A stretch of DNA of 60,987 nucleotides, filler included, from Globobulimina sp. (taxonomy: Eukaryota): assembly GCA_003354225.1 (NCBI GenBank). It is 12 parts of 12 records of this genome, joined end to end, with 100 filler letters (N's around TTAATTAATTAA, not from the genome) between each part and the next. Parts side by side here need not be neighbours in the genome. Positions count along the whole stretch, not along the records: positions 1 to 5,001 come from PIVH01000783.1; positions 5,102 to 10,098 come from PIVH01000784.1; positions 10,199 to 15,194 come from PIVH01000785.1; positions 15,295 to 20,289 come from PIVH01000786.1; positions 20,390 to 25,382 come from PIVH01000787.1; positions 25,483 to 30,475 come from PIVH01000788.1; positions 30,576 to 35,566 come from PIVH01000789.1; positions 35,667 to 40,655 come from PIVH01000790.1; 4 more parts are not named here. One strand, written 5' to 3'. A model generated the notes under the pieces. That model did no database searches and had not been told where the DNA came from. It saw only the letters and a program-made list of their open reading frames with translations. The stretch's first letter is position 1; every line of letters starts with the position of its first letter. Shown piece by piece: positions 1-46,703 of this stretch. A program made the position numbers and the translations under genes.

Positions 1-2903
1 TTGGCACTCAACCAACCCACGAATAATATTAAGTGGCGGCGACGACCGAACAATTCGATTATGGCGATTGTATCCACATAATTCATTATATCAATCCAGT
101 AACAGCAACAACAAAAACCAGCAACACTCCAATATAACAACACCAAAACTCAACGCAGTTAGCACCAAAATAAAAGCAACAGCATCTTCCTCCGACAATA
201 ATGACTCTGAAGATTCTGTAGAATTAAGATATGACCAACAACAACAACATTTGTCTGATGATGACGACCCAACTAATTTCATCACAGACTTTGATCCATC
301 CATCCAACCAATGTCGCATTTACTCTCTATGCCCGCTTCTGGCGAAGTTAAAGGGATTTGCATGTCGCCATATAATGGTATGATATTATGTTTATATCCT
401 GGCACATACGACATATTCTATACTCAGGCGAGATTTTAGCAGCAATATCCTCGCGACTGTTCAATCAGAAATCCTCGTTAGATATATTTTGCATTCCTCA
501 TTGGACATGGAATTATTCATCGAGGCAACGAGTACCATATAAAATGCAACTGCGGCAACAGGAAAAGCATAAAATGCAACTACAAGAATTGGATCTAAGT
601 ATGGCAGACAACAATGTGGACACTGTCACGGATGGTATCAATTTAGCGATAAACAGTTTAGACGATGAGTTGGAAAAAGATGAAGAGGACACAAAGACTA
701 ATCCTTTTATAGAGAATCAGCGAAATAAAGAATCGTTGGATTTTGTCAACCGTCCCAGCGTTATACCGCTGCCATATGGCGCTCGAGAAAGATGTATCAC
801 ATTCTCACCATCGCAAGATATCGTATTTGTTGGTATGTGGTTTTGTATGTGCTTTGCCTGTGATTTTTATGTTAAAATGTGTATATTTAAGGTTTGTTGA
901 GTTGCAGGAAGCAGCATCAACGACGTTATTGTTGTTTGATGGCTTGCAATATATTGAATGGTGCGAGCAGAGCTTGTAAGAAAATTAATGCTTTGTTGCA
1001 TAGAAAAGAATGTATATATTCGATACAATTAACGTCTACGAATGTGAATAATGCTCATTGTGATGATGAGAAGCAAGAAAGTGAAGATAAGCATAAGTCA
1101 GCAAACAAAAAAAATATATACAGACTAGCATTGGGGACCAATTTGGGCCGTTTGATTGTTGTTACATTGAAACAAAATCTGTCATGGAGTAATACTCGAA
1201 AATCATTTGTTACTCAATTTACGATTGCTTTTAAAAAAGATCCCGTCATTGCTGAGAAGCATAAAACTAAAAATAATAATTTGAACGGGGAGTCCAAATT
1301 AAGGTATTGCAGTAACAAAGCAATTGTGCAATATCTTTGAAAATGGAAACAGTTTGTCATGATATGAATATTTTTGACCATTCAGCTTTTTGCAAAAACC
1401 TACGAAATGTTATGGGAATTTCCTGTGTAAATCTAGTTCAATGACATTTAAATAAATATTTTTTTATACTGCTAACCGCTAAAATGCATATTTGATGACC
1501 GAATGTCATAGCATTGAATGACAAAATTTGAATGTGATTGCAATTAGACAGGGATTTACATAGCATTTCATAGAATGTTTTAGGATTTGCTACACTTTGA
1601 AATTATTGCATTGCACAATTGTTTGTTTACTGCAACAGTTCGAATAAAAATTCATCAAAATCAAAAATTGGGATATTTGAGCAAAAAAAAAAGAACAAAC
1701 ATCATAGAAAGACGTCATCGCGCAATGCAAAATATTCAGTATTGACGTCGCGGGAAAGATGTTTTCGTGAAATGTCGGATCCAATCACTGTAATGATAAC
1801 GTACGAGTCAATGAAGAAATATTTATGGAATCAATCCTCACAAATTGACGAAAATGATATCCACGAATTCTTTGAATTTATGCAACCAAACAAGAAAAAT
1901 CAAGTAACATTCACACAATTTGTGAAAAAAGTGGACGAGGATGGCGATTTTATGAGAGCTTTTGAACAGTTTTGCTTGACAGGCTCATCACGCACGGATA
2001 GGAGAGCTTGGATGGACAGAAACGATGAGGGGCACAGCAGTCAAAGTGAGGCAGATGAAAAGAAGGAGAAAAAAGAAGATGATGACAGTGATTGGGAGTT
2101 TGCAATGTTGAATCATCGCAGCAATGAGGTATTGAGGGGTAACAGCGCAATAACGGCCATTGCGTGGAGCAAATATGATAATTGGATCATTACTGGACAC
2201 CAAGATGGCGACATTCAGTTTTGGTCAAAGGAATGGTATGGAAATGGATATCATTTATCGCGGAAACAAAATAAATATTTGAAACTATCTTCATTTTATT
2301 ATGTTATACGAGGTTCAATGAAGCGGCATTGTGATAGCATTACGTGTTTAACATTAAGTGGCACATATTTAGGTATGATATCACAGTATTTTTGAATCAA
2401 AATAATGCATTTGAGCCAAATATACTGTACAAAATATGTTAGTGTCATCGAGCTGTGACGGGAATATATTAATATGGCATTTAGATTTTTTATTGCCGTC
2501 GGTGTCGTTACCAATGAATATAACATCATTGTCGTCGCGTGGAATTATTCAATTATTAGCGACAATATCTTCGGCGCATTTAGGTGATGAAATATGTGAT
2601 GTTAAGTTGTCGTCATTATGTGGTGATATTTCCTATTGTATACCGAATGCATTGTATTTATTATCCTGTGGAGCGGATGAAAATATTCGATGTAGAGATG
2701 TTATGGAAATATTAAGACAACAATTAACGTTACGGATTTTAGCTGAATCACAAGAACAGGAACACGATGAATCAAATGATATTATCAACAATGATGTTTA
2801 TGGCTATCCATCAATGAGTAGAAAGCAATCAGCAATACATGATAATAATAATAATATGGACGAGTCTGATGGATCTGACTTTGGTGCTACTGAATATAAT
2901 TAA
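1..2903 (+). CDS. WD40-repeat protein with EF-hand-like segment, 5'-truncated; introns 378-427, 833-891, 1304-1638, 2373-2442
   Basis: Frame open from base 2 (WHSTNPRIILSGGDDRTIRLW, a WD40 repeat). Further repeats ITAIAWSKYDNWIITGHQDGDIQFW and HCDSITCLTLSGTYL-V-SSSCDGNILIW. GT-AG introns join ORFs 68/388/894/1619/2436 in frame. EF-hand-like DIHEFFEFMQPNKKNQVTFTQF. Confidence 0.8.
1304..1638 (+). mobile_element. Spliceosomal intron with terminal inverted repeats (introner/MITE-like)
   Basis: GT at 1304, CAG at 1636-1638, phase restores the ORF. 5' end GTA-TTGCAGTAACAAAGCAATTGTGCAAT versus reverse complement of the 3' end CTG-TTGCAGTAAACAAACAATTGTGCAAT. Second internal IR pair at about 1392-1432 / 1543-1590. 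Confidence 0.65.
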
Positions 2904-3129
2904 ATTTTATTTGCCATTGTACTGTAAATTTATATGCTGTTATTTGTGCGACGAATTAAGTTTTTTGTTGTTGTTTTTGTTGTTTTATTTATTATAGAAT
3001 ATCAGATATGTCATTGTTTTGTCATGACTTTTTTGTTTCCTTGTCACATCACCCTTTCGCTTAAATCCGACATGGGTGTTTCAGCAATTTTTGACCTACC
3101 AGTTATTTCTTACGTTTTGGTTTTCAAAC

Positions 3130-4776
3130 ATGTCGCTCTCACAATATACACAAACATATGTTTTTATTTTATTCATTACGCGAATTGGATTATTAGTTGA
3201 AAGTCAATCCTGTAACATTGCTTACGAATGTGTGGGTACTGAATGGACATTATCTGATAGTATTTCTGGTGCTGGATATAAAAGTTTATTTGGATCAAAC
3301 ACATCAATCATCGGTACCTATACCTGGGGAAATATACAGTGTAGCGGAGCATATTCATGCACAGAGATATCATTCATATTAAGTCAGTATACTGTAATGT
3401 GTTATGGCAGTCATTCATGTTCAAATATAGCGGGTCCATCGTATATTGATACATCTGATGATGTTTATTGTTATGGTTCAAATTCATGTACAAATAGCAA
3501 CATCAGAGCAAATAATGTTTATTGTTCTGGAGATCAAAGTTGTAATTATGCAAATATTTCGGCACTCAGAGTTACGGCGGATGCGGCTTATTCATTATAT
3601 GGAGCAACAATTGACAGTAAAAATATTACAGGTGAATTATTCGTCTATTTATGGGGATATCAATCAGGTTTTGGAGCAAATATAATCTGCCGATCTGGTG
3701 ATGTGTGTAACATTTTTTGTTATTATAATGGCTGTCAAATGTTATATTTATTGTGTGAAGATGATACAAATTGTAATCTGATAATGTCATCCAACGATCC
3801 GACCATTACCAGTACGCCAATCCAAAAACTGGCTGACTTTGATGCAAATTTCTATGATATGAAATATATGAATCATGACTCTAATGCACTTTGTAATAAT
3901 TCATCCGAAATTGTAGCATATGATAATTATCAACAGCAACAAGTAGCATATGATACTTATAATGGCGGAGTGTGTTGCCGTGGTTCACAATCATGTCAAT
4001 TAGCGTACACCATTCAGGTTACTGCATACGTACAATCACCAGATATTATTGTATGTAGTGGTTATTGGTCGTGTGCCACAACAATTATTACTACCACAGG
4101 ACCGACATTTTGCGAAGGTCATAAATCCTGTTATTCAGCAACTATCAATGGATCTGATAATGTCTATTGTTTAGGGGCTATGCCTGTGATCAAAGTGTAA
4201 TTACCGGCTCTAAAAATGTATATTGCTCTGCTCCCAAGTCCTGTTGGAATGGTCGAATCCAAAGCAACGGAAATGACACAAATATATATTTATTGGGTCA
4301 CAATGCAGGAGCTGGATTGCAGATTCATTGCAAAGTAGGCGATGAATGTAATGTAACGTGTGGTGCATTGGGATCCTGTTTATCAAATACATTATTATTT
4401 TGCAATGATAATTGTTTGGTGTATTGCAACGATGACACGGGATGTCCAGTTGGTACTTATTCATCAATACAGTTACGATCACCCACAGGTATAAAAAACA
4501 AAAATGTGAGCAATATAGAATCCAAATAATATGTGCCAAATCACATTATTTGTATTCTATCTAAATTGTATTATATTATATATTGCAGTGAATCCCAGCC
4601 AATCACCAAGTCAATCACCAACAGATCCAAGCAAATCACCAACACTTAATCCGAGCTCATTAACTAATACAACTACAATTACTGCAGTTACTACACGTGT
4701 TGCTAATGATTCCCATGTATTCAGCTTTGTTTATAGTGTATTTGTAGTTCTTTTATGTTATATTTGGGTAATGTGA
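3130..4776 (+). CDS. Secreted/surface Cys-rich repeat protein (C-x-G-x-x-S-C repeats), Ser/Pro/Thr stalk, C-terminal hydrophobic anchor; apparent frameshift at GGGG 4174-4177; intron 4489-4588
   Basis: Signal-peptide-like N-terminus; repeats CSGAYSC, CYGSHSC, CYGSNSC, CSGDQSC, CRGSQSC. ORF 4167 continues the repeat pattern in another frame. SPSQSPT stalk and hydrophobic tail. Confidence 0.7.
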
Positions 4777-4951: not shown

Positions 4952-5001
4952 AATGGTATTATATTATAAAAAATAGCATAATTGTTGAATTTACGAACTT
5001 T

Positions 5002-5101
5002 NNNNNNNNNNNNNNNNNNNNNNNNNNNNNNNNNNNNNNNNNNNNTTAATTAATTAANNNNNNNNNNNNNNNNNNNNNNNNNNNNNNNNNNNNNNNNNNN
5101 N
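5002..5101. other. Artificial contig linker N44-TTAATTAATTAA-N44 (also 10099-10198, 15195-15294, 20290-20389, 25383-25482, 30476-30575, 35567-35666, 40656-40755, 45742-45841, 50825-50924, 55907-56006)
   Basis: Same 100-nt spacer with six-frame stops occurs 11 times; flanking contig lengths decrease or tie in order. Confidence 0.98.
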
Positions 5102-5119: not shown

Positions 5120-5282
5120 ATTGAGAAACGTTTCTGAAATTTCAAAAACGTTTTTGGGACTAAATGGAATATACAGAGGCTGTATGAGGTCGACGAGCGA
5201 TGTGAAAGAATTGATTCCGGAGTTTTATTACATGACAGATTTCCTGATCAACAAAGACAAATTGGATCTGGGCGTCAAGCAA
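5120..5282 (+). pseudogene. 163-bp copy of BEACH-gene intron/exon segment 8825-8987
   Basis: Matches 8825-8987 with two visible mismatches, then diverges and stops at 5303. Confidence 0.85.
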
Positions 5283-6706: not shown

Positions 6707-9700
6707 ATGAATCATGGCGGGCACCACTATTACAACAATAATTACAAAACCGCAGACGCAATGAACATCCCACTTCCATCCTCAGGTCACCATCATAATA
6801 ACCATTTATCATTACAACAATCTAAATCCGCACCATCACATTTTGGCACAGAATGTTCGCACATTTTAGGCTCACTAAAACACGAAACCTTGGATGACTT
6901 TCAAATACAATTATTCCAATTACTGCAAAATGCATCGACTCAAAGCGTCAGCTCCTATTTTCAAAAAAAATCCAATATATTATACAGATTCATCATCACA
7001 TTATACATTTGTTCATTGGATAAATCCCACCCAATCCGCAAAAATACCCATAATGAGTTGCAAACATTCAATGAATTCCATAACGCATTCACCAAATCAC
7101 AACATCACCAACAATCATCCACCTGTTCCTCCAACAATTCATTGACAAATTATGATCAACCACAGCCTCCCATGGCCTTCTTCAGTCCGACGATGAAAAT
7201 AAAATCTATGCCGGTCAGCTCAAAGGCAAAGTCATACTCACAGTCACAGTCACTCTCACATTCACATAACACGCCCACTGAGTCAGCGGCACCATCGATA
7301 TCATCCGAACCCAATCTAACCGCCGCATTGACAAAGCAAAGCTCCTCGCAGTCAGACTCCAGCAACTCATCGACGCAAGAACTGAATACTAACAATAGTT
7401 ACAATACAACATTCCAAGCACCAAATACCAACAATATATCCTTTGGAGTGTCTAAAAACGCCCAGCCACCAACAAAAAATGCACGCAAACAATATAATAA
7501 GAAACAGAGATCGCACAATAGTTTGAATAATGTGTTGTCGTCACCCAATAACAGAGCCAATCGGCCCTCCTTTGCAAGGCAAATAAGCAGCAAATCGGCA
7601 CTGGCTTTGAAGAATGTGGTCAATAAAAAGAAGAGAAAAATGAAGGGATTGCCTGAAATTGAGGAGGAAAAAGAAAAGGAGAGAATTATTTTTGTAGAAA
7701 CAGGTATTTCATTATACGCAAATTCGCACAAATTCTTGAGAACGTTTCAGATTTCTGTGCAAAAAACTCGTTGCTGCAAAATAGTGCATTTTGTATCTGA
7801 TTGTTTTGTCACAACACAGCGGAAATTATCGCACCAATGACTAGCGTTCATGGCAAGATCCGCATTACCAACAAAAGCATATCATTTATGCCAGACATTG
7901 AGCAAAAAGCAGACAACACATCCAATAACGGCTACAATTTGGCATTAAATCCGCCAAATTTGCAGCAAATGGATGCCAATGAACAGATATCTTTTGTGCG
8001 GGCGGACAATGAGTTTAAATCCACGCGCGGCGAAGATGACAAATATTGGGTGGCTGTCAACGTCGCCTCCTCCTACGAACAAGTCGGCGGTACGCGATAC
8101 AAATTGATGAACGCCAAAAACATATGGAATATCACCGAAGTCACCGAAATATATTACAGACGCTATCAAGCACGAAACTGTGCGTTTGAGTTATTCTTCA
8201 ACGATGACACTTCGTTCCTATTCAATGTATTTACAGAGAAACACCGCGACAATGCATTCAATGCAATCATTGACAGCAAATATGCCATCAATCTGATAGA
8301 CGAAAGCTCGGTGTTTAAAAACCCTAAAAAAGCCATAAAATCCAGCAAAATCCACCATAAATGGTGCACGCGGGAGATCACTAATTTTGAGTACATTATG
8401 AGGATAAATCTATTGGCTGGCCGCACATTCAATGATTTGGAGCAATATCCCGTGGTTCCATGGATCATCAAAGACTATGTCAGCAACGAAATTGATTTGA
8501 AGAATCCGAAGATTTACAGAGATTTAAGAAAACCCATTGGAGCCTGCAATGTGGATCGGTTGAAGAAGTTTGTCGAACGGTATGAGTGCATGGCGGATGA
8601 CCCCAATAATAGGTTCATGTACGGCACGCATTATTCCACCAAAGCCATTGTGCTGTTCTTCCTCATTCGAATGGAGCCGTTTACAACGTACAATAAGTTG
8701 TTTCAAGGCGGAAAATTTGATACTGCCGACCGACTGTTTGACAGTATTCAGAAAACATTTAGGTACAAACTGCTCTGCTTTCCATCAGAAACGTTTCTGA
8801 AAACTCAAAAACGTTTCTGAAAATATTGAGAAACGTTTCTGAAATTTCAAAAACGTTTTGGGGACTAAATGGAATATACAGAGGCTGTATGAGGTCGACG
8901 AGCGATGTGAAAGAATTGATTCCGGAGTTTTATTACATGACAGATTTCCTGATCAACAAAGACAAATTGGATCTGGGTGTCAAGCAACACAGCGATACAA
9001 AGGAGCGCGTGAACCACGCAATATTGCCGCCGTGGGCTGGAGGGTCGTATGAATTGTTCACGAAAACGATGAGAAATGCGTTTGAATCTGAATATGTATC
9101 ACGGAATTTACATCATTGGATTGATCTGATATTTTGCTATAAACAGTCGGGTAAAGATGCAGAATTAGCACATAATATATTCCATCCCTATACGTATCAG
9201 GAAAATGTGGATTTGGATGCTATCACTAATGAGAATGAGAAAGAAGTGATATTGCAAATTATATCGGAATTCGGACAGACGCCGATGAAGATATTTAAGA
9301 AGCCGCATCGTGTGCGCTTGAAAGGGACGCAAGTGGTTCAAAACATATATAAAGCAAAGTCGATAAAGTATTACGGCTCGTTTGTATGTGTGGAAGGCGG
9401 ACATATTGGGATATCTTATATGGCGATGAGGAGTAAAGGGGATAAAAATGATAAAAAAAATATAATCACCATCTCTACGGATAATACAGTGGATGTACAT
9501 AAATTTGATGAGAAAACGTTTACGATTACAAAGGACGAGAAAAAGAAATCATCGCTGAATGTATTATTTCATCGCAATAATAACAAGCAATGGAACCATT
9601 ATCATGGCGGTGTGGTGAAGAATCAAATTATAAAAAAACAATCCAATAATCTATTTCTGAAAAACTTATGTTTCGCAATTACACAGGATGGCAATTATTT

Positions 9701-10098
9701 GTTTGCCTGCGGATTCGAAGATTGTTCCTTTATACAATATGTTATCAGTCAAGAAAAAATCGAACAGGAATATCATAATCATAGGTTTGTTACATTCACC
9801 ATTTTAAACATTATCAGTACAGGTTTATTGCAAGGTCTTTAAAGCTGACATGTTGTCATAGTCATAGTGATTTAATGTTTTTTTGAGTGAGCATTAGCTT
9901 AACCATGACAACCATGCAAAGCTTAATTTACTTGAATAAGTGTTGATAATTCATGAGACACAGTTTAAATCTTAGTTTTTTCAAAACAAAATAGTAATAT
10001 CGTCTCATGTTTAGCATTGGATGAGAATGAAAGGAAGAATAAGATAATATTAGTGACCGGTTCCTATGACAAAACCATTATTGTATGGAAAGGCAAAC
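6707..10098 (+). CDS. PH-BEACH-WD40 protein (neurobeachin/LRBA/LYST family), 3'-truncated; introns 7704-7819, 8763-8881, 9785-9994
   Basis: BEACH motifs WCTREITNFEYIMRINLLAGRTFNDLEQYPVVPW, YGTHYS, DVKELIPEF, SEYVSRNLHHWIDLIF, FGQTP. PH-like RRYQARNCAFELFF. WD40 HSNIVSCL...VTGSYDKTIIVW after splicing. Start codon uncertain. Confidence 0.92.
8785..8861. repeat. Intronic array of four ~20-bp units, each carrying the palindrome TCAGAAACGTTTCTGA or a variant
   Basis: tcagaaacgtttctga / tcaaaaacgtttctga / tgagaaacgtttctga / tcaaaaacgttttgg inside intron 8763-8881. Confidence 0.85.
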
Positions 10099-10236
10099 NN
10101 NNNNNNNNNNNNNNNNNNNNNNNNNNNNNNNNNNNNNNNNNNTTAATTAATTAANNNNNNNNNNNNNNNNNNNNNNNNNNNNNNNNNNNNNNNNNNNNAT
10201 CCTTTTGCAACATAGAATTTTGATTTCCAACAATTA

Positions 10237-10397
10237 GGGAATGTTCTAGTAATTAGAATTGATCCTAGGTCCTAGGTACAATTCTAATTACGTAATACTA
10301 GAACATTCCCGTATGGATCTTAGTTTTGAAGAACAATTTCCAGCAAAATCACATCAATAAATATGTCAAATTTTTATTCAAAACTAAGATTCCATAC
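10237..10397. repeat. Two abutting hairpins (10237-10310 and 10311-10397)
   Basis: gggaatgttctagtaattagaattg...caattctaatta(cgtaa)tactagaacattccc; gtatggatcttagttttgaa...ttcaaaactaagattccatac. Confidence 0.8.
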
Positions 10398-10434: not shown

Positions 10435-11503
10435 ACTTAACGATATATTCAAAAAGATAACCCCCCGGCCCTGGTCGATAAGTTGTATACATTTTATCTT
10501 AGAAACGCTTTGCAAATCCAGAAACGGTTTGCTATAGGTTTGTCTTGAGTTTGTTCTGTTGCCGAGAACAAAGTCGTGCTGGGAGTATATTTAGTTATCC
10601 TAGCAAAATGTTCCAATACATACAAATGTTTTTGTGTGAAAGTATAGAAATGTGCAAGGATATATATACAAAAATATTTCGCAACTTAAGCAAAAAGGCA
10701 TAAAACTAATTATATGATTAATTACAAACACATTGACAACAAAATATAATAAAAAACACAAATATTAAAAATATATCAAATATATATTAAAAAAAATAAT
10801 ACTGTAAAATAATTATTTTTGTTGACAGCGAAAACACAAAAAGTCGATCACTCCTCAACAACAAAAATATTACTCAAACACATTGTAAATTAAAAGATAA
10901 TAGTTTTGAATTATAAAAAAAATGTAATTTATGAACACATAACAAAGAATATGTCCGTATCCCATTTTAATGGTCAAGCATAGCACCAAATAGCATGGGC
11001 AGCTCATCTTAGCATAATTAAATATGTCACTTATTAATGTTCAATCTGGCATTACTATCATCTCTGCGGGCGATGGTGCGTCAAAGATATAACCAATGTA
11101 TCAACGACAGTTAATTAATTTTCCTGTGAATACACGTCAATTAGAAATAGAATTTCATGCATCAGCATTTCTTAACTAATAATATATGCCTTTGACAATC
11201 TAATCCAATAATAATTTCACCTAAAAAAAATCACAAGGATTTTGTTGTTTCAATGTAAGCTGCGACTCGATATAATACAGCGATTTATTTGGCCGGTTAT
11301 ATAATTAAAATTATTAAAAACCACAATTTAATCAGTTGCGAAAAGGGAGGATTAATTGTTTACAAAAAAGATAAGTTTTGAAGGTTTTTTGTTTGAAGTT
11401 TTTCTAACAAATCGCAAATCCAGAACAAATTTATAATTGAATTTTCGGTATACAAAGGGGAGTTATACAAAGGGGAGTTATCTCTTGGAATATATCGTTT
11501 AGT
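10435..11503. mobile_element. Non-autonomous TIR element (~1.07 kb), with an extra inverted terminal copy at 11520-11620
   Basis: Left end ACTTAACGATATATTCAAAAAGATAACCCC versus right-end reverse complement ACTAAACGATATATTCCAAGAGATAACTCCCC. 11520-11620 is an inverted ~100-bp copy of 10441-10552. Both end types recur at 29633-29833. Confidence 0.7.
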
Positions 11504-11824
11504 GACACTTACAATGGTTGAAACCCAAGACAAACAGTTTCTGGATTTGCAAAGCGTTTCTCAGATAATTGAATAAAATGTATACAAGTTATCGACCAGG
11601 GGGTATCTTTTGGAATATATAGCGCCAAATCAATATTCAACCGTACAATGTATATGTTGTTCATCAATGATATTAAAATGGCAAAACAATCATATACTTA
11701 ATAATAAAAAAATGTATTTTTATTTTTTTTGTTTGTGCTTGTTTGTTTATGTTGCGTGCTTTTGTTTTGTATATTTGGGTTCATTTTTGTATATTTGTAG
11801 GGCAATCACTGCAGACACACCACG

Positions 11825-11924
11825 GCAGTCACAACTATTGAGCTAATTTTAATTTTGGTGATCGGATTTCAACTTTTGCAGTTGATCGCTCACCACAATA
11901 AATTAGCTCAATAGTTGTGTCTGC
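11825..11924. repeat. 100-nt foldback with 24/25-bp arms, followed by CACTGCAGACAC repeats
   Basis: gcagtcacaactattgagctaattt ... aaattagctcaatagttgtgtctgc, with further inner pairing (tggtga/tcacca, caact/agttg). Confidence 0.85.
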
Positions 11925-12492
11925 ACTCTGCAGTGCACTGCAGACACACACACTGCAGACACATCGGTCACTGCAGTGAGTTGCATGCGTGGTATCATGC
12001 TATTTTGTAACAAATTGATTAATTACTCGTCGGTTACTATTTGCGTTTCATTTGGAGTAAACACGAATATTATGGAGACACTCACAAGTGGTAGTTTTCC
12101 ATTACGAAACAATAAAATACTCGCTATCTTCGAAATTATTAAAAATAAGCAGCACTTATAATACACATAACCAACAACTGACATTGCTCCAACTGGATGG
12201 ATGTAATATAATGCAACACAATAACCAATGACACCAATATTTCATTATATCTTTTCGCGTCCATTGTAATGCATAAATCATGATATTTTTTGTCAAGTAG
12301 CGCCAGATTCTGTGGATCCAGTTCCTAGATGAAGGGACAACTGATATCTGACGTTTGTTTGACAAAGCTTGGTTCACATCTATGCTTTTGAGGTGATGGT
12401 TTCACATTCAAGTTTAGATGGTTTCAATCCTGACATAGTATGTGTCTGCTCACTTTCCAAGTTTTGGTAACAAGATACTTACATCACATAAC

Positions 12493-29632: not shown

Positions 29633-29833
29633 TTAAACGATTTGTATACCGAAAATTCAATTATAAATTTGTTCTGACTTTGTTCTCGATTTGCAAACCC
29701 AACACAAAGTTATAACAAACACAGAACAAATCCAAGACAAATCTATAACTGTTTCAAGCGTTTCTCAGATAAGTGAATTAAATGTATACAACTTATCGAC
29801 CAGGGGGGGTATCTTTTGGAATATATCGTTAAG
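29633..29833. mobile_element. ~200-bp MITE of the same family as 10435-11503, flanked by TAG on both sides
   Basis: 29641-29676 is the exact reverse complement of 11421-11456; 29755-29833 matches 11552-11620 and the inverse of 10435-10510. Confidence 0.75.
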
Positions 29834-35666: not shown

Positions 35667-38600
35667 GATAAATGTGCATAAATTGAAAAAATACCCTTCC
35701 GCTTCATAGCGAGAACCAAACATTTTGCGTAGATGCATTGTACACATATCATAGGTATACTGTTCAATGTATTTATTAATATTTAATAAAACATCCAACT
35801 GTGATTCCTTCAACAATGACTCAATGAGATGTATCACTTTTAATTGTCCCGTAATGAATGATTCATTCAATAAAAACTCCTTTTTGTTATCAATCTTATC
35901 TTCAGCCATTTTCTCGATTTCACGCCGGATTCTACGAAAATAAGAGTCAATATACGGCGAAAATGGAAATAATACTTGGACATCCACATCGACATTAAAA
36001 CAGGTATTCAAACCACTATCCATAGTCATGGTGGAAGCCCGTCTGACTCGCGGATTGTTCTCCAATTCATGCCCTTCGACACTCCATATCCGATCTGTAG
36101 AATGTGTAGATGCAGACAATTGTGGTATGCCTTGGGGTACTTTGTCACTTTGCTGCTTGTTGTCATCTTGAATAATATTGGATTTCGCGCCAATTATATT
36201 TGATTGTTTCAACAAATTTAGCCATGTATCATTCATCCATAATTGATAATAATTTGCTGCGATTTTCTCGGTATTCGGTAGATATAATTTGGAGGAGCCA
36301 TAGTTTAACATTGCAAATAATACTTCAATAAACTCTGATTTCATGCGCGTCGAAATCTGTTTGATAATACATTGTCGAAAGGAGCCACGATCCAATAAAA
36401 TAGCCTTTCGTTCGGAGATATTGTTTAATTTTAGTAACATTTTCTTGATGGTATCAATCGGACCAGATTTAGACGACGATAATACATTTTGTACGCGAGA
36501 TATGATGGCTTGGGTCAATTCGTTCCCTGCTTTTCTTGTGATATTATTGCCATGAATGATCTGTTGCGTTTGTACACCGCTCACCATTTGCTTAATTCTA
36601 TCAATTTCTGGTCTCATTTGAAGGGGAAATCGGATGTGATTTAATGCCAATTCAAACGTAGAAATAATCACAGATTCCGCATGCCGATTGATTCGACTCT
36701 CAAACGTTTGCTTAAGAAAAGGAATATGCAGATTTAAATCAGTCACTTTAATCTCTGATGGCAGCAACGCATCGCAATAAATATGCTGCCATTCTAAATT
36801 AAATATCAATGGGAACTGTTGGGACTGAATATGCTGCGCATTGATGTTGGATGTATTATATTCAGCATGTGATTGTGGGTAACTATAATTATCTGAAATG
36901 GAGGAAAAATCGAGGCGCGACATGTATAATATAACTATAATTTGTTTATTTGGCACTGATTTCTTATTTTCATTTAAAGTTTGCACGGCGGAATGTTTTG
37001 CCTTTTCAATCAAATATTGTACGTGCAAATTATGTAAAAATTCATTGTTGTCATTGTTTGTACATTGAACTACTAATGTTTTGTCAGAATTATTTAATAA
37101 AAATGCATTTAATAAGGCTTCGAATTCCGAGGCGGACACAATTTCATTAATATTGACCAATACAATTTCTTTGGGTTTCCGGCTTTGTTTTGGTTTTTCT
37201 GGCAATGATATTGTATCAAAATCGTCGTCATCGTCATAGCCATCGATCATTGAAATCTGTGGCGTATTTTCTATGATGTGGATATTTTCCATATTTTCCA
37301 ATTCATATTCTAAGAAACGATTTTTTACTGTAAAATGTTTCTGAACATCCGATTTTTGATGAAAATGGTCATGCGTAGTGACTCGAATTAATGTCATTTT
37401 GCTTTCATTTGAATAAACTGCAGTTTTTTTTTGAAAATGATGAATTGCATCGACCAAGGAACTGAACGGAGTGGCTCGGTTAACAATTTTTAATCTATTT
37501 TTCAATGAAATATCGCGATGCGAAATAAAATGCCGTAAATAGCAATTTGTTAATAAAATAGCAATGCCATAATCAATAATGTTCTGATCATCTGCAGAGA
37601 ATCCATCATCATCGTATTTATTTTCCTGTTTTTCTTCTTGCAGCGTTTGCAGTGTTTGTTGTGATACAATATGCTGCGCATAAATCAGTGCAGAAGCAAA
37701 GGTCAACGTTGGTACATATCCAGCAAAGACAGAAAAATAATCAGAAATTTGTTTTGTACTTTGCAGTGCTTTTTGGATTTGTTTCTTAAATTCAATTAAT
37801 AATTCGTCCCAGTTTGAGCTGTGCGAACCTGATAAATTCTTAATGGAAACATATTGTTTCTCCAAACGATTCAAAAAAGCCACCGGAGTATGCTCATTGC
37901 TGTTAGCTGAGGTATGATGCGCCGATGTTATTGGAATGACGATAATAAATCTAAAGGATGGATGAATCTGTACTCGAATGGTTTCATTGCGAATGGAAAT
38001 ATTGCTAAACCTCTTCGTGTCTACTTTTAAATAGCGTTGATTTAAAACATCATACAACGAATCGTACAGTTCATCCAAATGTAACAATACCACCGTATGT
38101 CCTGAAGACATGGCATTTTTTATTTTTTCAATGTTTTGATGCAAATGTAATGAGGAATTCTTATCGTTTTTGAATTTGGAACCAAATATGACTCTCGATG
38201 TATTATGTTGTAATACATTCATATCATAAAGGTATTTCCAAGAAATTTCCGTATCTGAAAGGATTTATATATTATAAATGTAGAGATATAGTGATGTACA
38301 CTTACCTGTAATCAGCATAACATGTCGCATATCATAGCCCATATTATTAGAATTTATAAATTCAATTTGTTTCTGTGACTGAAGGATATTTTGTTTGATT
38401 AAATTAATGGGCGATAATTTCGGATCATTCCAGATCTTATCTTTCATAAATTTGCTGGATTTTAAATCCAACGTTGAAGACATGATTGGAAATAAAAAGG
38501 TATTAAATTGTGATTGTGTGAGGCCGCCGAAATTGCGAAATATTGCTTCGATAATCAATTCTAATATGTCCGTATTGGATTTCTCCGGGAAATAATTACA

Positions 38601-40655
38601 ACAAAATTTCAAATATCCTATCAAATGATAAAAATCTCGTGCTCCATAAAAATTAAATTGATCGCGAAACGTGGATTTGTTGGCTACTTTTTGCGCTTCG
38701 ATTAACTGTTTATAAAATTTCACTAATTTTTCTAAAATATTATTGATTTTGGGTACTGCGGCACCACCGGGACCCTGGTCGGCAATCACCTGCGCAGTCT
38801 TCATCAAATCATTTGGATCCTGATGTATCGGCATAACCTCATGCAACACGGCCCTGTTCATTTTGGCAGAATCCAATGACCAGTTTGACAAACCAATGAA
38901 AGATATTTCTGGATCTTCCAACAATTTATGCAACACTTTGAGTGGTTTTCTATTCGACTGTTCAGCCAAACCCATTTCATCGAGGAATAATACTTGATTT
39001 GGTATTTGAGGCGAACGTGCTCTCAATTTCTGCACTGACAATGCTTTCAAATATTTTGCTTTGATCATTTGTGGCGTGGTCAGTTTACTGCACTGGAAGT
39101 GGTTAACTTGGTAATCTTCGATACCTAATTTGCTCAATTTCCGCGACTTTGTAGCTTTATCTAAATTTGTTTCCAATGTAACCATTGCTAATGTCTTACT
39201 TGAACCGGGACGTCCAACTGACGTAAAATATAATTGATTTGTTGTATTAATAATAATATAATAACATACCTACGATGGTGGGTGTATTGGTAACAATACC
39301 TACTAACATGACAAAGATATTCTCTTTGAATGCTCTGTTTTTAGCAATGCCGATTGGAATATCCAAATCGTCGATATATCGTTTCTGTCCTTGATCCACT
39401 GTATGCGCGAAATAATTACTTATGGTGGTAACGATGGATGGCACATTGGATAATTCGCGATTGATAAATGTATCGTATTTCCTTCGGAATTCAAAAGTTA
39501 ATCGATAATAATAACACTGTGCTAAGGCCATAATCATCGAATGCAATATCCGATTTCTTGGATATTTTAACCATTGCTTTTTGTATTGATTATAAAAGAA
39601 AACAAAGAATTTATTTGCTCTTTGAACATCACGCAATGAGCATATGGATACATCAGACATCCATTTACGTAGATTTTGTTGTGACTGATCAATCAAAGAG
39701 GCAAAAAAAGGTCGAAATTCATCAAATATCGGACCTACGTGTTTCCTATAATTCCTATTCCGATTTGAGGCCAATAAAGGATTCCAATGATTGGCTGTAA
39801 TCACTGCAATATATTGCTTCTCATCGATGGGATTAATATAACCAAAATTCCACACAAAATATTTCATGGACGGTGGTAACGGATACACAGTATATACTAA
39901 CTTAGACATATCGCGCTCAAATTCATTTTTATAAAATGTTTTATTATTTTGTTTGTCTTGATTTTCCTGCAATCTTTTTTCTTCCGTTTTCTTTCGTCGT
40001 CGATACGGATTCAGAGCTCCAATGGTTATTAAATTTTCAGGCAAATGCTCCCCTTTAAAGCAATGATCGCATATTATCTCTTTAAATGACGCGATCTCTT
40101 CCGACGTATTGATTTCATCCAGGAACAATAATACCGTATTCTGCCGATTATTCAGTGCGTGCGCTGATGCTTTGCCCATATCTCGCGACAAGTCCTCAAT
40201 ATTGTAGCCACCGTGGACATCCACAGAAATCATATCTAAATTCAGCACATTGGCCATATATTCCAATAACTTTGTTTTGCCGCAACCAGTCTCACCCTGA
40301 ACAGCAAAATTATATAAAATAAAAAAAGCAATATACAAAATTATAAACACATACCATTATCAGTACCGGCACACCAGATTTAACCCGGAAAAATATAGCA
40401 ACGATCTTCAAGATATTATCAAAGGTCAAGGCATAATCTTTATTTTTTTCATACAAATCCTCCACTAATTTCGCCCGCGCATTTTCATCACGAATGGGCA
40501 CCATTTTTTTATCCCATTTATCAAACTCTTTGTACCCACCGCATAATTTCAATATCAATCTCAATTTAATTTTTTGCTTTTCTTGCGAGTCTGCCTCCAA
40601 CTTTCCTCTCTGTACATTTTGTCGTCGAATTTCATCCTCTTTTCTGAAATTATAT
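35667..40655 (-). CDS. RNF213: RNF213/mysterin-like tandem AAA+ ATPase, internal fragment; introns 40297-40354, 39218-39269, 38255-38305
   Basis: After splicing: PVLIM-GETGCGKT, LFLDEINT, GALNPYR, LVYTVYPLPPSM, SLRDVQR, VVGRPGSSKTLA, LFLDEMGLAE..PLKVLHKLLE, FIGLSNWSLDSAKMNRA, GARDFYHL, LYDSLYDVLNQ, FLNRLEKQ. Confidence 0.88.
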
Positions 40656-41870: not shown

Positions 41871-41970
41871 ATTCAGCTGTATAAGCTACGATAGCTACAA
41901 AGGGGCAATGTCAGGACTCAGGACTGCTTCAGTTTTTTTTCGCAAATATTTTAACATTAAATTTATAATC

Positions 41971-43177
41971 ATGGCATCCGCAACACTGAAACCCCAAAGT
42001 GTACAAATTGAGCCAAAAAATAGGTCGTTGTTGGTGGAATTTCTGCTTGGTGGTGTATCAACATCATGTGCCTGTTTATTCAGTAATCCTTTTGAAGGTA
42101 AAATTGCAATTATTTATTCATTGAAATTTAAAAAATATGACTTAATTTGTCAATGAAAAACATAAGCAAAGTGATCAAGACTAGAATGCAAGTTCAAGGA
42201 GAACAAGGAGCGCAAATCCGTGCATTCCGCAATTCATTGCATGCATTTTATACAATTTGCAGAAATGAAGGAATATATGGCATTCAACGAGGATTACTGC
42301 CCGCCATTGGCTATCAGCTGTGTATGAATGGCACACGTTTGGGCTCATACGGTCCCATCAAAAGACTGATTGGCGCCACACCCGACAGCTCATTCTTTAT
42401 ATTGCGGACAGTAGCAGCTGGTGCAATATCTGGTGGTTTATCCGCCTTTATTGGCTCACCATTTTTTTTAATTAAAGTCCGATTACAAACACAAGCCTCG
42501 GGGCAAACTGTTGCTGTTGGCACACAACATGGTTATAACCAAATGTCTTTCGGTCAGGTTCTGAAATCTATCATAAACGAAGAAGGCATGAAAGGACTGT
42601 ATCGCGGAGTAACCAGTGGAATGTTGAGGGTCAGTGTTGGCAGTGCAGCGCAATTAAGGTATCTATGGAATTATTTCTATGTACGATATATTGTATTTAA
42701 TTTAAACAGTAAATCCAAATAGTTTTTGACATGAAAACACGGTTCAAAATGGTCTCTGACGCTGCAAAATTAATTGTACTGTACTCAAACTATTTGGATT
42801 TTGTGTTATGATTATTTTAATTTGGCAATTTAATTACTGTCAGTTCGTATGATGCCATACGGAGAGAATTGTCAAAGTATGAGTACTTACGGAAACATGA
42901 ATTTGTATCGCGATGTGTAAGTGCATTTGTTGCGGGTTTTGTTGTGGTTACAGCAATGAACCCATTTGATGTGGTTGCCACAAGAATGTATAATCAAAAT
43001 GTTGGTGAAAGATATCGCGGAAACACTGATTGTTTACTACAGATTTTAAAGAAAGAGGGACCATCGGGATTTTTAAAGGGTTGGGTTGCTCACTATGCGC
43101 GATTAGGACCACACACTATTTTAACTTTTGTATTTTGGGAACAAGCCAAAATTATTGCTTCCAACTATGGATATTAA
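41971..43177 (+). CDS. SLC25A35: Mitochondrial carrier, OAC1/SLC25A34-35 type; introns 42098-42171, 42659-42843
   Basis: NPFEVIKTRMQVQGE, GYQLCMNGTRLGSY, GSPFFLIKVRLQ, RVSVGSAAQLSSY, NPFDVVATRMYNQ, YARLGPHTILTFVFWEQ. Confidence 0.88.
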
Positions 43178-43702: not shown

Positions 43703-45162
43703 TTAACCTAATAGGCCATAATTATTGTACCCCCAACATTTGAGTATGTATGAGTTGTCATCAATGTATGACAACCTATTCACAGCACAGTACAGCACAG
43801 CATCTGCAGATCAAAAGTGAAACAACGAGTGCGAACATGGAAAACAAGTTGGATGTTAATTACAATTATTATTTATAGTACGACTGTACTGCACGGCACG
43901 GATCAAAGTTGCACATACATGCAATTAGTTACATTCATTGCATATTTCTCATTTATTTGGATCAAATCGTCTCCATTCCACCCATTCAACAATATTCTTC
44001 TTTCCTCATCTACGAATTTTTGTTGCTTGACATGCAAATGCTGTCCCATATGACCGACGTAGCCATTATAAAATAGAGTAGCAGCCATAGTGAAATATCT
44101 ATTCCTGTACTTACAGGCAACACAATGCTCCATTGAGCCTTGATTGGGGTTATCATAAAACTCCTTTATACAATTCTTTATAGACCCTCTCAAATATTTT
44201 ATTCTGCTCAATCCAGGATTAGCACTCCAATGATGAAAACAAACCTCGCTACCAAAGCTATACAAGAAATATTTTAAATGTTTATGATATCCTTCATATG
44301 TCACATTGTACCATTTTCCAATATCTTTCGCAAAGTATCTTCCACCACAAAAATGATCCAGTTTGAGATACGGCGAATGTATTTGATAATTTCTTAACGG
44401 ATGCAATTATAACAAAACATATTTCGGATTTTCAGAGGTTTCGAGAAATACTATATCCAAAGTCTAAACTTCTCAAAATCAAATATTTTTGTTCTCGTTT
44501 ACCTTAAACCGACCATTGAAATGCGCTGTTGTTTCATTTTATTTCCATTAATGTTATGATTAGTTTTTAAAATCGCTAACGAATCTTCGATGAAACCATA
44601 TCTATAAAACTTCCAATCTTTTGTTTTTTCGTTTTTCTCACAAGAACGCAATATGGAAATATAAACAAACCAAACACGAACCGTCTTCGGTTTGAAAAAT
44701 GTATGTTGCGCCGTTACTGTATTTTGTGATTGCATCGTAAATTGATAATATTGTCCGTACATCGACCTTTTCATAAGTGCTATTCCGCGGTGTTGTGGTT
44801 GTAAAAAATTCATAGCCATATTGAGAATATTTTATTTCCATCTGATTGAGTCCAATTATGTCATTGCAGTCATCCATTACTATTTTTCTTTGTAAGCATT
44901 TAAATGTATTGTATTGTTCGAATGAATCAATTGTTTGTGATAATTCATGCCATCTGCCACAACTTATAATCACCAGAATTATGCTATCATTGTACAAACA
45001 TGAATGCTGTTCAATTATTTGATTTATTTCATTTGGTTGGATTTCATCCAGAGAAGTTGTGTGCTGCTCAGTAATGTATACGTTGTATAGTATAAATATC
45101 ATCAATTGATAGATAATTAGTAATAACAACCAGTGTTGGCAATTTTTCCTTTTCTTGGACAT
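43703..45162 (-). CDS. Type II membrane GT-A-fold glycosyltransferase-like protein; introns 44619-44681, 44393-44502, 43776-43918
   Basis: N-terminal signal anchor, ISCGRWHELSQTIDSF, IVMDD, spliced YIFQTEDDWKF, WSANPGLSR, YVGHMG. Confidence 0.75.
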
Positions 45163-45364
45163 CTTGCCGGCTAGAAAACTTTCGTAAGTCTGTTAGTTAT
45201 CTCAGTACAAAACTACTTTAGATTTCTATGAATTCTGCAGCTGACCACAAATGCGACAATTTATTGTTTTCGATTTTAGAAATAAAATTTATACAAAAGA
45301 AAGAAAAACTGAAAAGTAAATATATACAAAACACGTAAACAAAAATAAAAAATAAATGAAAGTG

Positions 45365-45741
45365 TTATATGATTGACACATCTTCATTATCAGTGACAAT
45401 CGCTCCATAAAAACATTCATTAGCACCGTTTAATTGATTTAATAGTTTTGCTTTGCCTCTATAATGTAATACACCAAACACAATAAAAGTAACAAATATT
45501 GCAAACCCAATTACACCGCCAATATAGTAATACAATTGTGTACTGCTAGAATTTGATTTTACATTATCAGGTGGTGGCATATTAGATGCTGCATTATCAG
45601 GAGAGATGTTGTTATTCTTTGTGAACCCAAAAATTGTAGTTTGTAGCGGAATGCTGTGAAATGTATACAAATGGTTTTAACTTCGAGTTCCGAAACATAC
45701 TGTTTCTTTAATATATAATCTTACGTCTTAACTCTGAATCT
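45365..45741 (-). CDS. C-terminal part of a single-pass membrane protein
   Basis: YYYIGGVIGFAIFVTFIVFGVL followed by basic residues. Confidence 0.5.
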
Positions 45742-46097
45742 NNNNNNNNNNNNNNNNNNNNNNNNNNNNNNNNNNNNNNNNNNNNTTAATTAATTAANNN
45801 NNNNNNNNNNNNNNNNNNNNNNNNNNNNNNNNNNNNNNNNNTAATTATTTTTAAAAATCTAGAGGGAACACATAATACTATTAATCAGAATGCACAGCTA
45901 CCAATGTGTCTGTCAGATGATCTGTATCAATCCTACCACCAATGAATCAAGATTTAATTTGCGTGGACGATTGGTGATAGTGATGGATATCCCAGCATTT
46001 CAACCAAATTATGGTTCAAAATGACGAAGGCATTGTTTAAATACTTCAAAGTGTTTGTTTCTAACAGATTGGCAAATGGCAACTGTCAATGTCATAA

Positions 46098-46703
46098 TCA
46101 CTCTTTTTTCGGTTTCTTTTGCTTTTCCATTTGTAGTCGTTTATGTTTATTCCGATAATGTTGTTTAAATTCATGTGTTTTTACTTTAATAACTAATTGT
46201 GATGCATTGTATAGTCCTAATATTAGCGCAATTAATGAAATTAAACATAATGGCAGTGATAATATGACAGTGATAAATAAGCCCGATCTATCAAAATAAT
46301 TTTGATTTGAAAATGTTTCCCAATTATTAAAACACCATTCGTTTATGTATTGAGCACATGATACGATAATAACTGTTTGTTTTAATTAAATGATGAGTAA
46401 AAACAAATGTTCAACACATCATTTACGCTTAACATGTCACAATAAACAGTACAGATTGTACTGCCCAATTTTGTTGAGTATAAATTGTGAATCCAAGAAG
46501 TAATAATTCAAACAATAGCAATGATAGCAACCAGTACTCTGTTCATAATATAACTTATATTTTAGGTATTATTAGACATAAAATGAGATCTAAATACCTG
46601 CCCAGTCAACTGCATTTAGGAATGCATTGGTGTGATCCCAAAATGTCATATCTTTCTGCAAATTCAGCACAATTCGCCTAGCCCAATCTTGGATACTACT
46701 CAT
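46098..46703 (-). CDS. TMEM18: Transmembrane protein 18 homolog (not in the ORF track); introns 46539-46597, 46373-46433
   Basis: Spliced product ...FLNAVDWAEYWLLSLLLF...IVSCAQYINEWCFNNWETFSNQNYFDRSGLFITVILSLPL...KVK plus basic tail, matching TMEM18 hallmarks DW.EPW, CAEYINE, NW..FS..QYFD..G.FI. Confidence 0.85.

Follow-up and report, generated by a model that had tools for sequence, protein, structure and literature searches.

The window analysed here is a 60,987-nucleotide stretch of AT-rich eukaryotic DNA from Globobulimina sp., in which 12 unrelated contigs of approx. 5 kb are joined by N/TTAATTAATTAA spacers; its best named protein match is from the foraminifer Reticulomyxa, with 55% identity. 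Introns in this DNA are usually 50–68 nt long and lack an inverted repeat. A preliminary description listed 12 introns, the longer ones mostly described as foldbacks, on six contigs; a recount places them on five (contigs 1, 2, 7, 9 and 10). All 12 have GT..AG ends on the strand given in Table 1 and compatible flanking reading frames, and Pfam domains run across some of them, i.e., CMAS (30995–31259), Mito_carr (42659–42843) and BEACH (8763–8881). Four of the 24 introns, all on contig 2, the one contig covered by reads, are verified by RNA and the other 20 are inferred from sequence: spliced RNA-like public contigs skip 8763–8881 and 9785–9994 and brought to light an additional intron (6786–6851), and the splicing of 7704–7819 is indicated by loose ends that resume in the next exon. 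Our enumeration yielded one further long intron (59903–60072). An alternative model of 46373–46433 is a single 225-nt intron, 46373–46597. No gene call covers the two intergenic features of Table 1, the first of which lies 45 nt from a transposon end; the window also contains a genuine transposon family with terminal inverted repeats, and palindromes adjoin the transposon.

Table 1. Introns and intergenic palindromes of the window. Shuffles, number out of 200 dinucleotide shuffles whose folding equals or exceeds that of the real intron.
Position	Strand	Length (nt)	Context	Fold z	Shuffles	Inverted repeat
1304–1638	+	335	inferred; WD40 gene	−4.3	0/200	26-nt arms 1307–1332 / 1610–1635, 3 mismatches, 3 nt from each splice site
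2373–2442	+	70	inferred; WD40 repeat reads through junction	−2.9	1/200	hairpin, 19-nt arms 2383–2401 / 2410–2428, 3 mismatches (16/19 paired)
4489–4588	+	100	inferred; sole candidate fitting frames	−3.4	1/200	compact near-perfect palindrome 4513–4562; flanks 24 + 26 nt
7704–7819	+	116	splicing by loose ends	−0.8	38/200	
8763–8881	+	119	BEACH gene; splicing confirmed (joint 8760>8880)	−5.2	0/200	30-nt arms 8789–8818 / 8829–8858
9785–9994	+	210	splicing confirmed (joint 9780>9991)	−1.1	29/200	
30995–31259	−	265	inferred; splits CMAS methyltransferase domain	−2.0	4/200	perfect 10- and 9-bp pairs
33883–34031	+	149	inferred; Pro/Thr/Ser-repeat gene	−4.4	0/200	perfect 15 bp, arms 33935–33949 / 33977–33991
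42098–42171	+	74	inferred; mitochondrial-carrier signature reads through junction	−1.4	19/200	
42659–42843	+	185	inferred; between Mito_carr repeats	−2.2	6/200	perfect 15-bp arms 42711–42725 / 42787–42801
44393–44502	−	110	inferred	−1.7	12/200	weak 15-nt arms, 2 mismatches
46373–46433	−	61	inferred	−2.7	1/200	perfect 9-bp stem
59903–60072	−	170	inferred; absent from earlier list (feature 59880..60072)			24-nt arms 59886–59909 / 60032–60055, 2 mismatches
6786–6851	+	66	spliced RNA-like contigs only (joint 6782>6849, GT..AG)	−0.8		unstructured
38255–38305, 39218–39269, 40297–40354	−	51, 52, 58	AAA-ATPase gene, 38255..40354; comparison set	−1.8, +1.2, +0.6		unstructured
10233..10392	.	82 + 78	intergenic	−8.1 (tile)		two adjacent strong palindromes
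11822..11927	.	106	intergenic	−8.3 (tile)		foldback, 25-nt arms, 1 mismatch

Thirteen long and 11 short introns were compared by length class with their dinucleotide shuffles, as the preliminary description had proposed. A fold z of −2 or lower was found in 8 of the 13 long introns (mean −2.5), in none of the 11 short ones (mean 0.0) and in 6 of 56 intergenic tiles; long introns fold better than short introns (Mann-Whitney p = 1e-4) and than intergenic tiles (p = 2e-5). The short introns, for which no stem had been claimed, indeed have none, with all 11 z values between −1.8 and +1.2 (mean 0.02). Inverted repeats scoring at least 12 number 9 in 12 long introns (1903 nt; 0.20 expected), 7 in 21 intergenic regions (8119 nt; 1.23 expected), 3 in 51 exons (39213 nt; 2.75 expected) and 0 in 12 short introns. 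As an external control, five intron-like gaps in the BEACH genes of other eukaryotes gave z values of −0.6 to +0.6. The foldback excess in the longer introns is real, and these counts demonstrate that exons and short introns lack it and that palindromes are also present in intergenic DNA. Nevertheless, not every long intron is structured, since 7704–7819, 9785–9994, 42098–42171 and 44393–44502 stay at shuffle level. The foldbacks of the preliminary description are partly confirmed: a strong inverted repeat close to the middle is found in most introns above about 70 bases.

It is very unlikely that chance, ascertainment or assembly produced this excess, i.e., folding of AT-rich sequence, selective picking, or inverted joins from amplification chimeras. 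Such an origin would fit the small sample (24 introns, 20 without RNA verification), the chance-level folding of 4 of the 12 listed introns and the low-complexity A/T repeat 59908–59921 / 60019–60032; likewise, the assembly may have been built from X1, the only DNA run used, which therefore gives no independent support. However, dinucleotide shuffles, intergenic tiles of the same contigs and exons are far less structured, and our enumeration added only the one long intron, so that selection bias is small; furthermore, artefactual inversions should also strike exons, yet these, at 64% of the sequence, stand at expectation.

The repeats take several forms. Over its whole length, intron 1304–1638 is a degenerate palindrome (symmetry-centre offset 0.000), and its inverted repeat starts at the fourth base from both ends, as had been reported; the 15/16 pairing in 4489–4588 and the perfect repeats in 33883–34031 and 42659–42843 were also recovered. 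Partial additional arm copies occur within 4489–4588 and 33883–34031, in the latter as a partial third copy in the loop. Intron 8763–8881 contains a tandem array of four copies of a unit whose core is a 12-nt perfect palindrome, and it folds even better in antisense (z −8.3). In 59903–60072, the 5′ part (60032–60055) is an inverted copy of an arm that spans the 3′ splice site and the first 17 exon bases; the inverted match extends over 37 nt at 92% (E 2e-8). The two inverted-repeat pairs attributed to 30995–31259 exist, but its folding is only marginal. On the other hand, the long degenerate arms described for 9785–9994 form no stem that is significant against shuffles, and the arms of about 30 bp claimed for 44393–44502, which has TTAAG at both boundaries, came down to those in Table 1, indistinguishable from shuffles. 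The stem of 42098–42171 is not significant against dinucleotide shuffles; in 7704–7819 no inverted repeat scoring at least 9 was found, and its foldback is not significant.

In seven of the eight structured introns the repeat is internal, 8–52 nt inside the splice sites; only 1304–1638 has its arms at the intron ends. The flanks outside the internal repeats are not complementary (7/7 z between −1.6 and +1.6). The best repeat lies centrally: its offset is at most 0.11 in 10 of 13 introns, where the null averages about 0.31 (Fisher p = 0.0036). This centring, together with a restriction to long introns (8/13 versus 0/11) at about six times the frequency in intergenic tiles, would be expected if RNA structure were selected, a spliceosome tuned to about 55 nt needing stems that fold away the surplus so that the splice sites stay functionally close. 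We consider such selection improbable. The centring weakens (p = 0.062) when the 8 nt at the start and the 14 nt at the end of the intron are barred to the repeat, and in 12 of 13 introns the end-to-end path of the fold is no shorter than in shuffles (between 5/100 and 82/100 shuffles have a path at most as long as the real one; 1/13 introns at ≤ 0.05). Moreover, the repeats are demonstrably strand-symmetric (mean z −2.68 in sense versus −2.73 in antisense; Wilcoxon p = 0.97), and 145 arm positions comprise 132 Watson-Crick pairs, 1 G-U, 5 A-C and 7 other mismatches. Palindromes of equal strength lie outside genes, and four to five long introns have no significant structure. That the stems give rise to small RNAs (miRNA- or hairpin-siRNA-like) or belong to other intron-hosted non-coding RNAs is the least probable reading of all: central stems of 15–30 bp with loops of 6–60 nt would suit Dicer geometry, but nothing in the window attains the gathering score of any Rfam family, and the stems are near-perfect and strand-symmetric, with similar ones in DNA that looks untranscribed.

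The arm sequences differ between introns, as had been noted: BLAST of intron against intron gave no significant match, and within the 60-kb window no repeat families were visible among the elements and no two of them had sequence in common. No target-site duplication of at least 3 nt was seen by eye beside 14 palindromes. Boundary direct repeats are marginally raised (mean 3.25 versus 2.28 in mismatched intron pairs), reaching at least 4 nt in 5 of 12 introns against 16% expected, and the sequence before long introns tends to be ...TTAAG or ...TTTAG. These boundaries, and the placement of the arms in 1304–1638, would agree with introner-type elements, i.e., foldback transposable elements, in many small families, that insert into exons, are spliced out and thus created introns. 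In line with this, an intron at 8762|8882 is missing from all 80 distant BEACH homologue loci, and the other two intron positions are intronless in all loci with data; this comparison is low-powered, with intron-like breaks in only 5/80 loci, all of them 33–48% identical. Such an origin is nonetheless unlikely as a general one, given the mostly internal repeats with their unpaired flanks, the lack of target-site duplications and the lack of common sequence, under which 13 unrelated elements would imply, by our own estimate, roughly 26 families or more. Of the two mechanisms proposed in the preliminary description, elements with terminal inverted repeats and selected stems, neither is positively supported; the notion that elements invade introns fits, so that the proposal is partly supported.

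DNA-transposon introners, or MITE-derived introns, have examples in algae. These are mentioned in PMC7789003. The terminal-inverted-repeat architecture and GT..AG excision of 1304–1638 resemble such introners (PMC9860276), and the window also holds the real transposon family noted above; unlike such introners, the introns studied here show no target-site duplication and no families, and the other repeats are off the intron ends. In fungi, introner-like elements form a class of introns "longer than regular introns", with GT..AG ends and very "stable predicted secondary structures", and coexist with short unstructured introns, which agrees with the present set; in contrast, they comprise hundreds of similar copies and fold as whole elements (PMC3609843), whereas most stems here are compact internal palindromes. 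In Amoebophrya, a protist with many lineage-specific introns, introner elements carry hairpin-capable inverted repeats with little or no family-specific motif; these repeats (8–20 nt) pair the 5′ and 3′ intron ends, are accompanied by boundary direct repeats of 3–5 nt and lie mostly in non-canonical introns (PMC7789003), which differs from the canonical splice sites and internal repeats of this window. The internally symmetrical (stw)introns of Hypoxylaceae, with terminal inverted repeats of 45–55 nt, recall 1304–1638 in their high symmetry and absence of flanking duplications, but they have sequence-similar "sister" introns and a nested-intron structure (PMC8469720), neither of which was seen here. 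Replication template switching generates reverse-complement copies and hairpins (PMC10710096, 10.1101/2021.04.15.439925, PMC5453318); the palindromes share with these mutations unique near-perfect reverse-complement copies of neighbouring sequence, short spacers, the absence of target-site duplications and, in 59903–60072, an arm putatively copied from the adjacent exon. A concentration of template-switch hairpins in long introns was not found described in the literature searched.

From these results, we give about even odds to a reading in which the palindromes form in the DNA itself and lengthen introns that already exist. We infer a mutational origin combined with a retention filter: inverted duplications of local sequence, such as replication template switching makes, or inserted small foldbacks would arise across non-coding DNA and not be tolerated by exons. 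The excess and its distribution favour this reading, and the equal folding of both strands and the scarcity of G-U among the arm mismatches are taken as signs of formation in DNA. Signs read as a local origin are the exon-start arm of 59903–60072, the extra arm copies, the tandem array of 8763–8881, and the lack of target-site duplications and of common sequence, with families judged from 60 kb only. Some observations count against this origin. Introns hold 6 strong palindromes in 2.6 kb and intergenic DNA 7 in 8.1 kb; this higher density in introns (Poisson p = 0.03; p = 0.001 if the target is only about 55 nt per intron) is not what a uniform mutational process predicts, unless a retention filter is added or transcribed DNA is favoured. 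When the core hairpin is removed, the remaining flanks sum to 50–68 nt in only 2/8 introns, so that a short intron plus one insert is too simple. Likewise, the 3 nt that 1304–1638 leaves on each side give no room for a pre-existing intron, and the transposon family has palindromes beside it. Even so, a palindrome landing in a normal intron of about 50–68 nt may be what lengthens it, and palindromic inserts would probably be retained in introns more readily than unstructured ones because a self-pairing insert stays clear of the 5′ splice site and the branch/3′ region. As a rule such palindromes would not create introns, 1304–1638, where palindrome and intron coincide, being the only possible exception; taken together, the pattern resembles an accumulation of palindromic DNA in non-coding sequence rather than the work of intron-creating transposons.

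A significant inverted repeat, usually central, is present in some two thirds of longer introns in this DNA and in no short one, which partly confirms the proposal of the preliminary description that most longer introns are foldbacks. The intron set was built with a home-made exon-chaining predictor and inspection by eye, and comprises 24 introns, i.e., 13 long introns of 61-335 nt (the twelve listed in that description plus 59903-60072) and 11 short introns of 50-68 nt. Each intron was folded against 200 dinucleotide-preserving shuffles, a negative z meaning that it folds better than these; the intergenic control consisted of 56 tiles of 120 nt from the same contigs, folded with a reduced number of shuffles. 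The long introns have a mean z of -2.50, with z <= -2 in 8/13; the short ones have a mean of 0.02 (range -1.8 to +1.2) and none of the 11 reaches z <= -2, in agreement with the earlier remark that they lack stems; and the intergenic tiles have a median of -0.02, with 6/56 at z <= -2. The long introns differ from the short ones (Mann-Whitney p = 1e-4) as well as from intergenic DNA (p = 2e-5). The contrast between length classes, for which folding against shuffles had been recommended, therefore holds for the group, but four of the twelve listed introns (those starting at 7704, 9785, 42098 and 44393) are individually at chance level. A separate scan for ungapped Watson-Crick inverted repeats scoring at least 12, with the expectation taken from shuffles, detected nine in long introns, distributed over six introns, against 0.20 expected, seven in intergenic DNA (1.23 expected), three in exons (2.75 expected) and none in short introns. 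Outside this DNA, five intron-like gaps (65-344 nt) in the BEACH genes of other eukaryotes served as a control and showed z values of -0.6 to +0.6 and no repeat above 7. From the comparison with shuffles, short introns, intergenic tiles, exons and these outside gaps, it is concluded that the excess in long introns is real and peculiar to this DNA.

Folding (z against dinucleotide shuffles) and repeat structure of the 13 long introns
Intron	z	Repeat structure
1304-1638	-4.3	degenerate palindrome end to end; best-kept arms 26 nt, 3 nt from either splice site
2373-2442	-2.9	compact near-perfect hairpin, small loop
4489-4588	-3.4	compact near-perfect hairpin, small loop
7704-7819	-0.8	
8763-8881	-5.2	four tandem units on a 12-nt palindrome
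9785-9994	-1.1	
30995-31259	-2.0	
33883-34031	-4.4	perfect 15-bp arms, non-palindromic loop
42098-42171	-1.4	
42659-42843	-2.2	perfect 15-bp arms, non-palindromic loop
44393-44502	-1.7	
46373-46433	-2.7	
59903-60072	-0.4	one arm = 3' splice site and first 17 bases of next exon; other arm near intron 5' end

The twelve stretches first listed as introns all have GT..AG ends on the strand assigned to them and all join open frames. GT..AG borders are found in 24/24 introns, with the consensus AG/GTAT...YAG, and Pfam matches continue over three introns: CMAS over 30995-31259 (profile positions 6-51, then 64-171), the Mito_carr repeats over 42659-42843, and BEACH over 8763-8881. Evidence for splicing from public sequencing runs concerns contig 2 only, and 20 of the 24 introns are inferred only. 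Contigs of the runs X2, X6 and X7 lack 8763-8881 and 9785-9994, both with GT..AG borders, revealed an additional intron of 66 nt (6786-6851), and have loose ends at 7703 and 7816, reading on into the next exon. The run X1 retains intron 7704-7819 and thus behaves as DNA; no run is recorded as RNA, and X2, X6 and X7 are taken as RNA-like from the splicing of their contigs. X6 and X7 are ~92% identical to the window and hence come from a relative; they splice at the same junctions, mRNA being silent on whether the genome of this relative has these introns. Other intron candidates were discarded: 4118-4335 and 4169-4335 both bridge a frameshift, 48887-49247 falls between two genes, the downstream one opening with a signal peptide, 40270-40354 had taken in a Walker A motif and was shortened to 40297-40354, and many spurious introns produced by the predictor at a lower intron penalty were ignored. 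The models 833-1008 and 833-891 are ambiguous, and 57434-57605 was left out of the set. At 4161-4200 of contig 1 a Cys-rich repeat gene shifts frame with no plausible intron, which points to an assembly error of one base or to a pseudogene.

Contig 2 shows two further peculiarities. For 7294-7408 there are two alternative X1 DNA contigs, with depths of 4.4 and 3.0, that are six substitutions and a 3-nt gap apart, which suggests a heterozygous diploid source. In addition, its start (5120-5282) is a 99% copy of 8825-8987, i.e., of the 3' half of intron 8763-8881 and ~105 nt of the next exon, past which the copies diverge; 8824 is followed immediately by 5120 in an X1 DNA contig, and 8760 by 5175 in an RNA-like X2 contig. 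Either this duplication represents another allele or a fragment of a paralogue, or the assembly has forked at the palindromic repeat.

The 12 contigs, of 4981-5001 bases each, are ordered longest first and joined by spacers of N around TTAATTAATTAA (5002-5101 and ten more), so that repeats called across spacers are artefacts of contig joining. The genes are eukaryotic: the best named match of the BEACH-domain exon is a Reticulomyxa filosa protein (55% identity), with metagenome proteins reaching 79%, and relatives of the SIS-domain protein are found at 74-78% identity. On this basis the source is tentatively placed as a foraminifer-like rhizarian. The G+C content is 28-38% in ten contigs, 41% in contig 11 and 46% in contig 4. 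The latter (15295-20289) is a single intronless open frame of 1665 codons for the C-terminal portion of a dynein heavy chain; its composition, unlike that of the other contigs, points either to a different source organism within the sample or to a gene of unusual bias. Contig 11 carries inverted repeats (51573-51850 / 55618-55906) of 174 nt (97% complementary) and 135 nt (86%), within which the contig terminates; they flank a comparatively G+C-rich gene of ~3.8 kb whose protein has cNMP-binding and RGS domains. A minisatellite with a 10-nt unit in ~13 copies is located at 56126-56324, with inverted partners at 56061-56073. The putative "RNF213-like" gene of contig 8 (35667-40654), tested in part, has weak AAA-type Pfam matches below the curated cut-offs.

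The repeat structures are heterogeneous among introns. In the seven structured introns other than 1304-1638, flanks of 8-52 nt lie outside the core hairpin, and no complementarity between the two flanks was detected in any of the seven (z -1.6 to +1.6), which rules out a whole-intron palindrome as the general design. A model of a short intron plus one insert gave fitting residual lengths in only 2/8 introns. Intron ends meet element ends in 1304-1638 and do not in the other seven. The earlier statement that arm sequences differ from intron to intron is upheld, given that no intron-to-intron match with E < 0.05 was obtained when the 24 introns were compared with the window by BLAST; likewise, neither this comparison, akin to the all-vs-all clustering that had been advised, nor a repeat search yielded families within these 60 kb. 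The only significant non-self matches were those of the 8763-8881 repeat with its other copy, at the beginning of contig 2, and of the exon-derived arm of 59903-60072. The resemblances of the 8763-8881 unit to a transposon terminal repeat, and of the arms of 2373-2442 to those of 33883-34031, are short and at chance level, and Rfam gave no match in the window.

Several observations bear on the level at which the repeats were formed. The mean z is -2.68 for the sense and -2.73 for the antisense strand (Wilcoxon p = 0.97). Of 145 arm positions in eight introns, 132 are Watson-Crick pairs, one is G-U, five are A-C and seven are other mismatches. The predicted end-to-end distance is not shorter than in shuffles, since 5/100 to 82/100 of these were at least as short, with one intron at 0.05. 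The best repeat is more centred than in shuffles (Fisher p = 0.0036, 13 introns), a result that weakens to p = 0.062 once 8 nt at the 5' end and 14 nt at the 3' end are off-limits, and palindromes at least as strong occur outside gene calls (10233-10392, 11822-11927 and 29664-29734). Taken together, the strand symmetry, the scarcity of G-U pairs, the unshortened end distance, the weakened centring and the gene-free palindromes point to palindromic DNA and not to stems maintained for the transcript. In yeast-type "zipper" stems, which assist splicing, RNA-specific pairing is expected, i.e., tolerated G-U pairs, better folding of the sense strand and covariation; here neither the sense strand nor G-U pairing is favoured. 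Stems selected for splicing are accordingly an unlikely explanation, neither strand preference nor pairing giving an RNA-specific signature. The best explanation, to which we give roughly an even chance, is that palindromes would arise at the DNA level in non-coding DNA and lengthen introns, likely with a retention bias for self-pairing inserts. This DNA-level reading leaves one fact unexplained: the density of palindromes in introns exceeds that of intergenic DNA roughly 3-5-fold (Poisson p from 0.03 to 0.001).

Mobile DNA is present in the window, as revealed by a family with terminal inverted repeats: its ~90-nt ends lie in contig 3 at 10440-10530 and, inverted, at 11537-11625, ~1.1 kb apart and with no long open frame between them, and a third end copy, 82% identical, is located at 29756-29828 (contig 6). 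Two palindromes adjoin copies of this family. The target-site duplication that typifies MITEs was not seen, as inspection by eye of 14 elements found no direct repeat of at least 3 nt just outside the extended arms, the fuzzy ends leaving room for a 2-nt, TA-type one. Direct repeats at intron boundaries have a mean length of 3.25 nt, compared with 2.28 nt for mismatched intron pairs, and reach at least 4 nt in 5/12 introns versus 16% expected; the rise is slight and is largely the AG consensus. The exon end AATTAAG/GTAT is common to three long introns (1297-1309, 31254-31266 and 42652-42664), and (A)TTAAG is present at both boundaries of 30995-31259 and 44393-44502, a marginal co-occurrence (two seen, about 0.5 expected); the shared TTAAG ends may reflect no more than the splice-site consensus in AT-rich DNA, or a target of the TTAA type. 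An introner system, in which transposable elements generate introns, would account for the arms of 1304-1638, next to both splice sites, and its families could be genome-wide, beyond the reach of 60 kb; it is kept mainly for these two reasons. Nevertheless, it is rather improbable in view of the lack of sequence families among these introns, of target-site duplications at the intronic palindromes, and of repeat ends at the splice sites of the other seven structured introns.

Features of the arms themselves are consistent with an origin by local copying. Partial extra arm copies in 33883-34031 and 4489-4588 are suggestive of template switching and, judging from the sequence, the exon-derived arm of 59903-60072 appears to be a clear case of a copy of neighbouring sequence, whose polarity needs an outgroup. 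These arms and the tandem palindromic unit of 8763-8881 are as replication template switching would give, a process described as a source of new hairpins in the available parts of PMC10710096, 10.1101/2021.04.15.439925 and PMC5453318.

For the age of three intron positions, BEACH homologues encoded at 80 metagenome loci were compared (33-48% identity). At 8762/8882 the match is unbroken in 80/80 loci, at 9784/9995 in 48/80 (32 without data) and at 7703/7820 in 9/80 (71 without data). Since intron-like breaks occur anywhere in only 5/80 loci and uninterrupted matches are favoured by the search, the result goes no further than that these three positions are not widely shared among homologues.

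Some described systems resemble these introns. Fungal introner-like elements, according to the available part of PMC3609843, are longer and more stably folded than regular introns, as are the long introns described here, but they exist in hundreds of similar copies, none of which was seen in this 60 kb. In the available part of the report on Amoebophrya introners (PMC7789003), repeats bring the intron's 5' end into pairing with its 3' end, and direct repeats of 3-5 nt mark the boundaries; here terminal pairing is restricted to 1304-1638. Euglenid non-conventional and intermediate introns have non-canonical borders and a stem joining the ends, in contrast to the uniform GT..AG borders and unshortened end-to-end path found here. 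The symmetrical introns of Hypoxylaceae (PMC8469720) and transposon introners (PMC9860276) are, from the portions of these papers available, among the closest described systems. As far as these partial sources go, all four groups (fungal, Amoebophrya, Hypoxylaceae and transposon introners) share a long, structured intron and none is matched on every defining feature. Literature searches turned up no such introns in Rhizaria or Foraminifera, the supplements of introner surveys (PMC9860276, PMC12130899) being places where rhizarians may be listed. The available part of a rhizarian genome paper (PMC13746701) reports no introner signal in its species and a mean intron length of 87 bp in Reticulomyxa.

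Should the pattern not be genome-wide, it would represent ordinary repeat clutter of non-coding DNA. A more speculative picture, which we regard as doubtful, is that of a foraminifer-like rhizarian with a large and diverse population of hairpin-only mobile elements, known by structure and not by sequence, that would create introns (1304-1638) and expand them, self-pairing letting a short-intron spliceosome tolerate them; if true, Rhizaria, a supergroup in which intron evolution is almost unstudied, would have its first introner-like system. If the pattern is genome-wide, it would bear on whether hairpin-containing introns originate from introners, MITEs or replication template switching, intron length in this lineage would be set almost entirely by one type of event, the acquisition of a palindrome, and the genome would serve as a clean natural test of whether the inserts tolerated by a short-intron spliceosome are those that fold on themselves.
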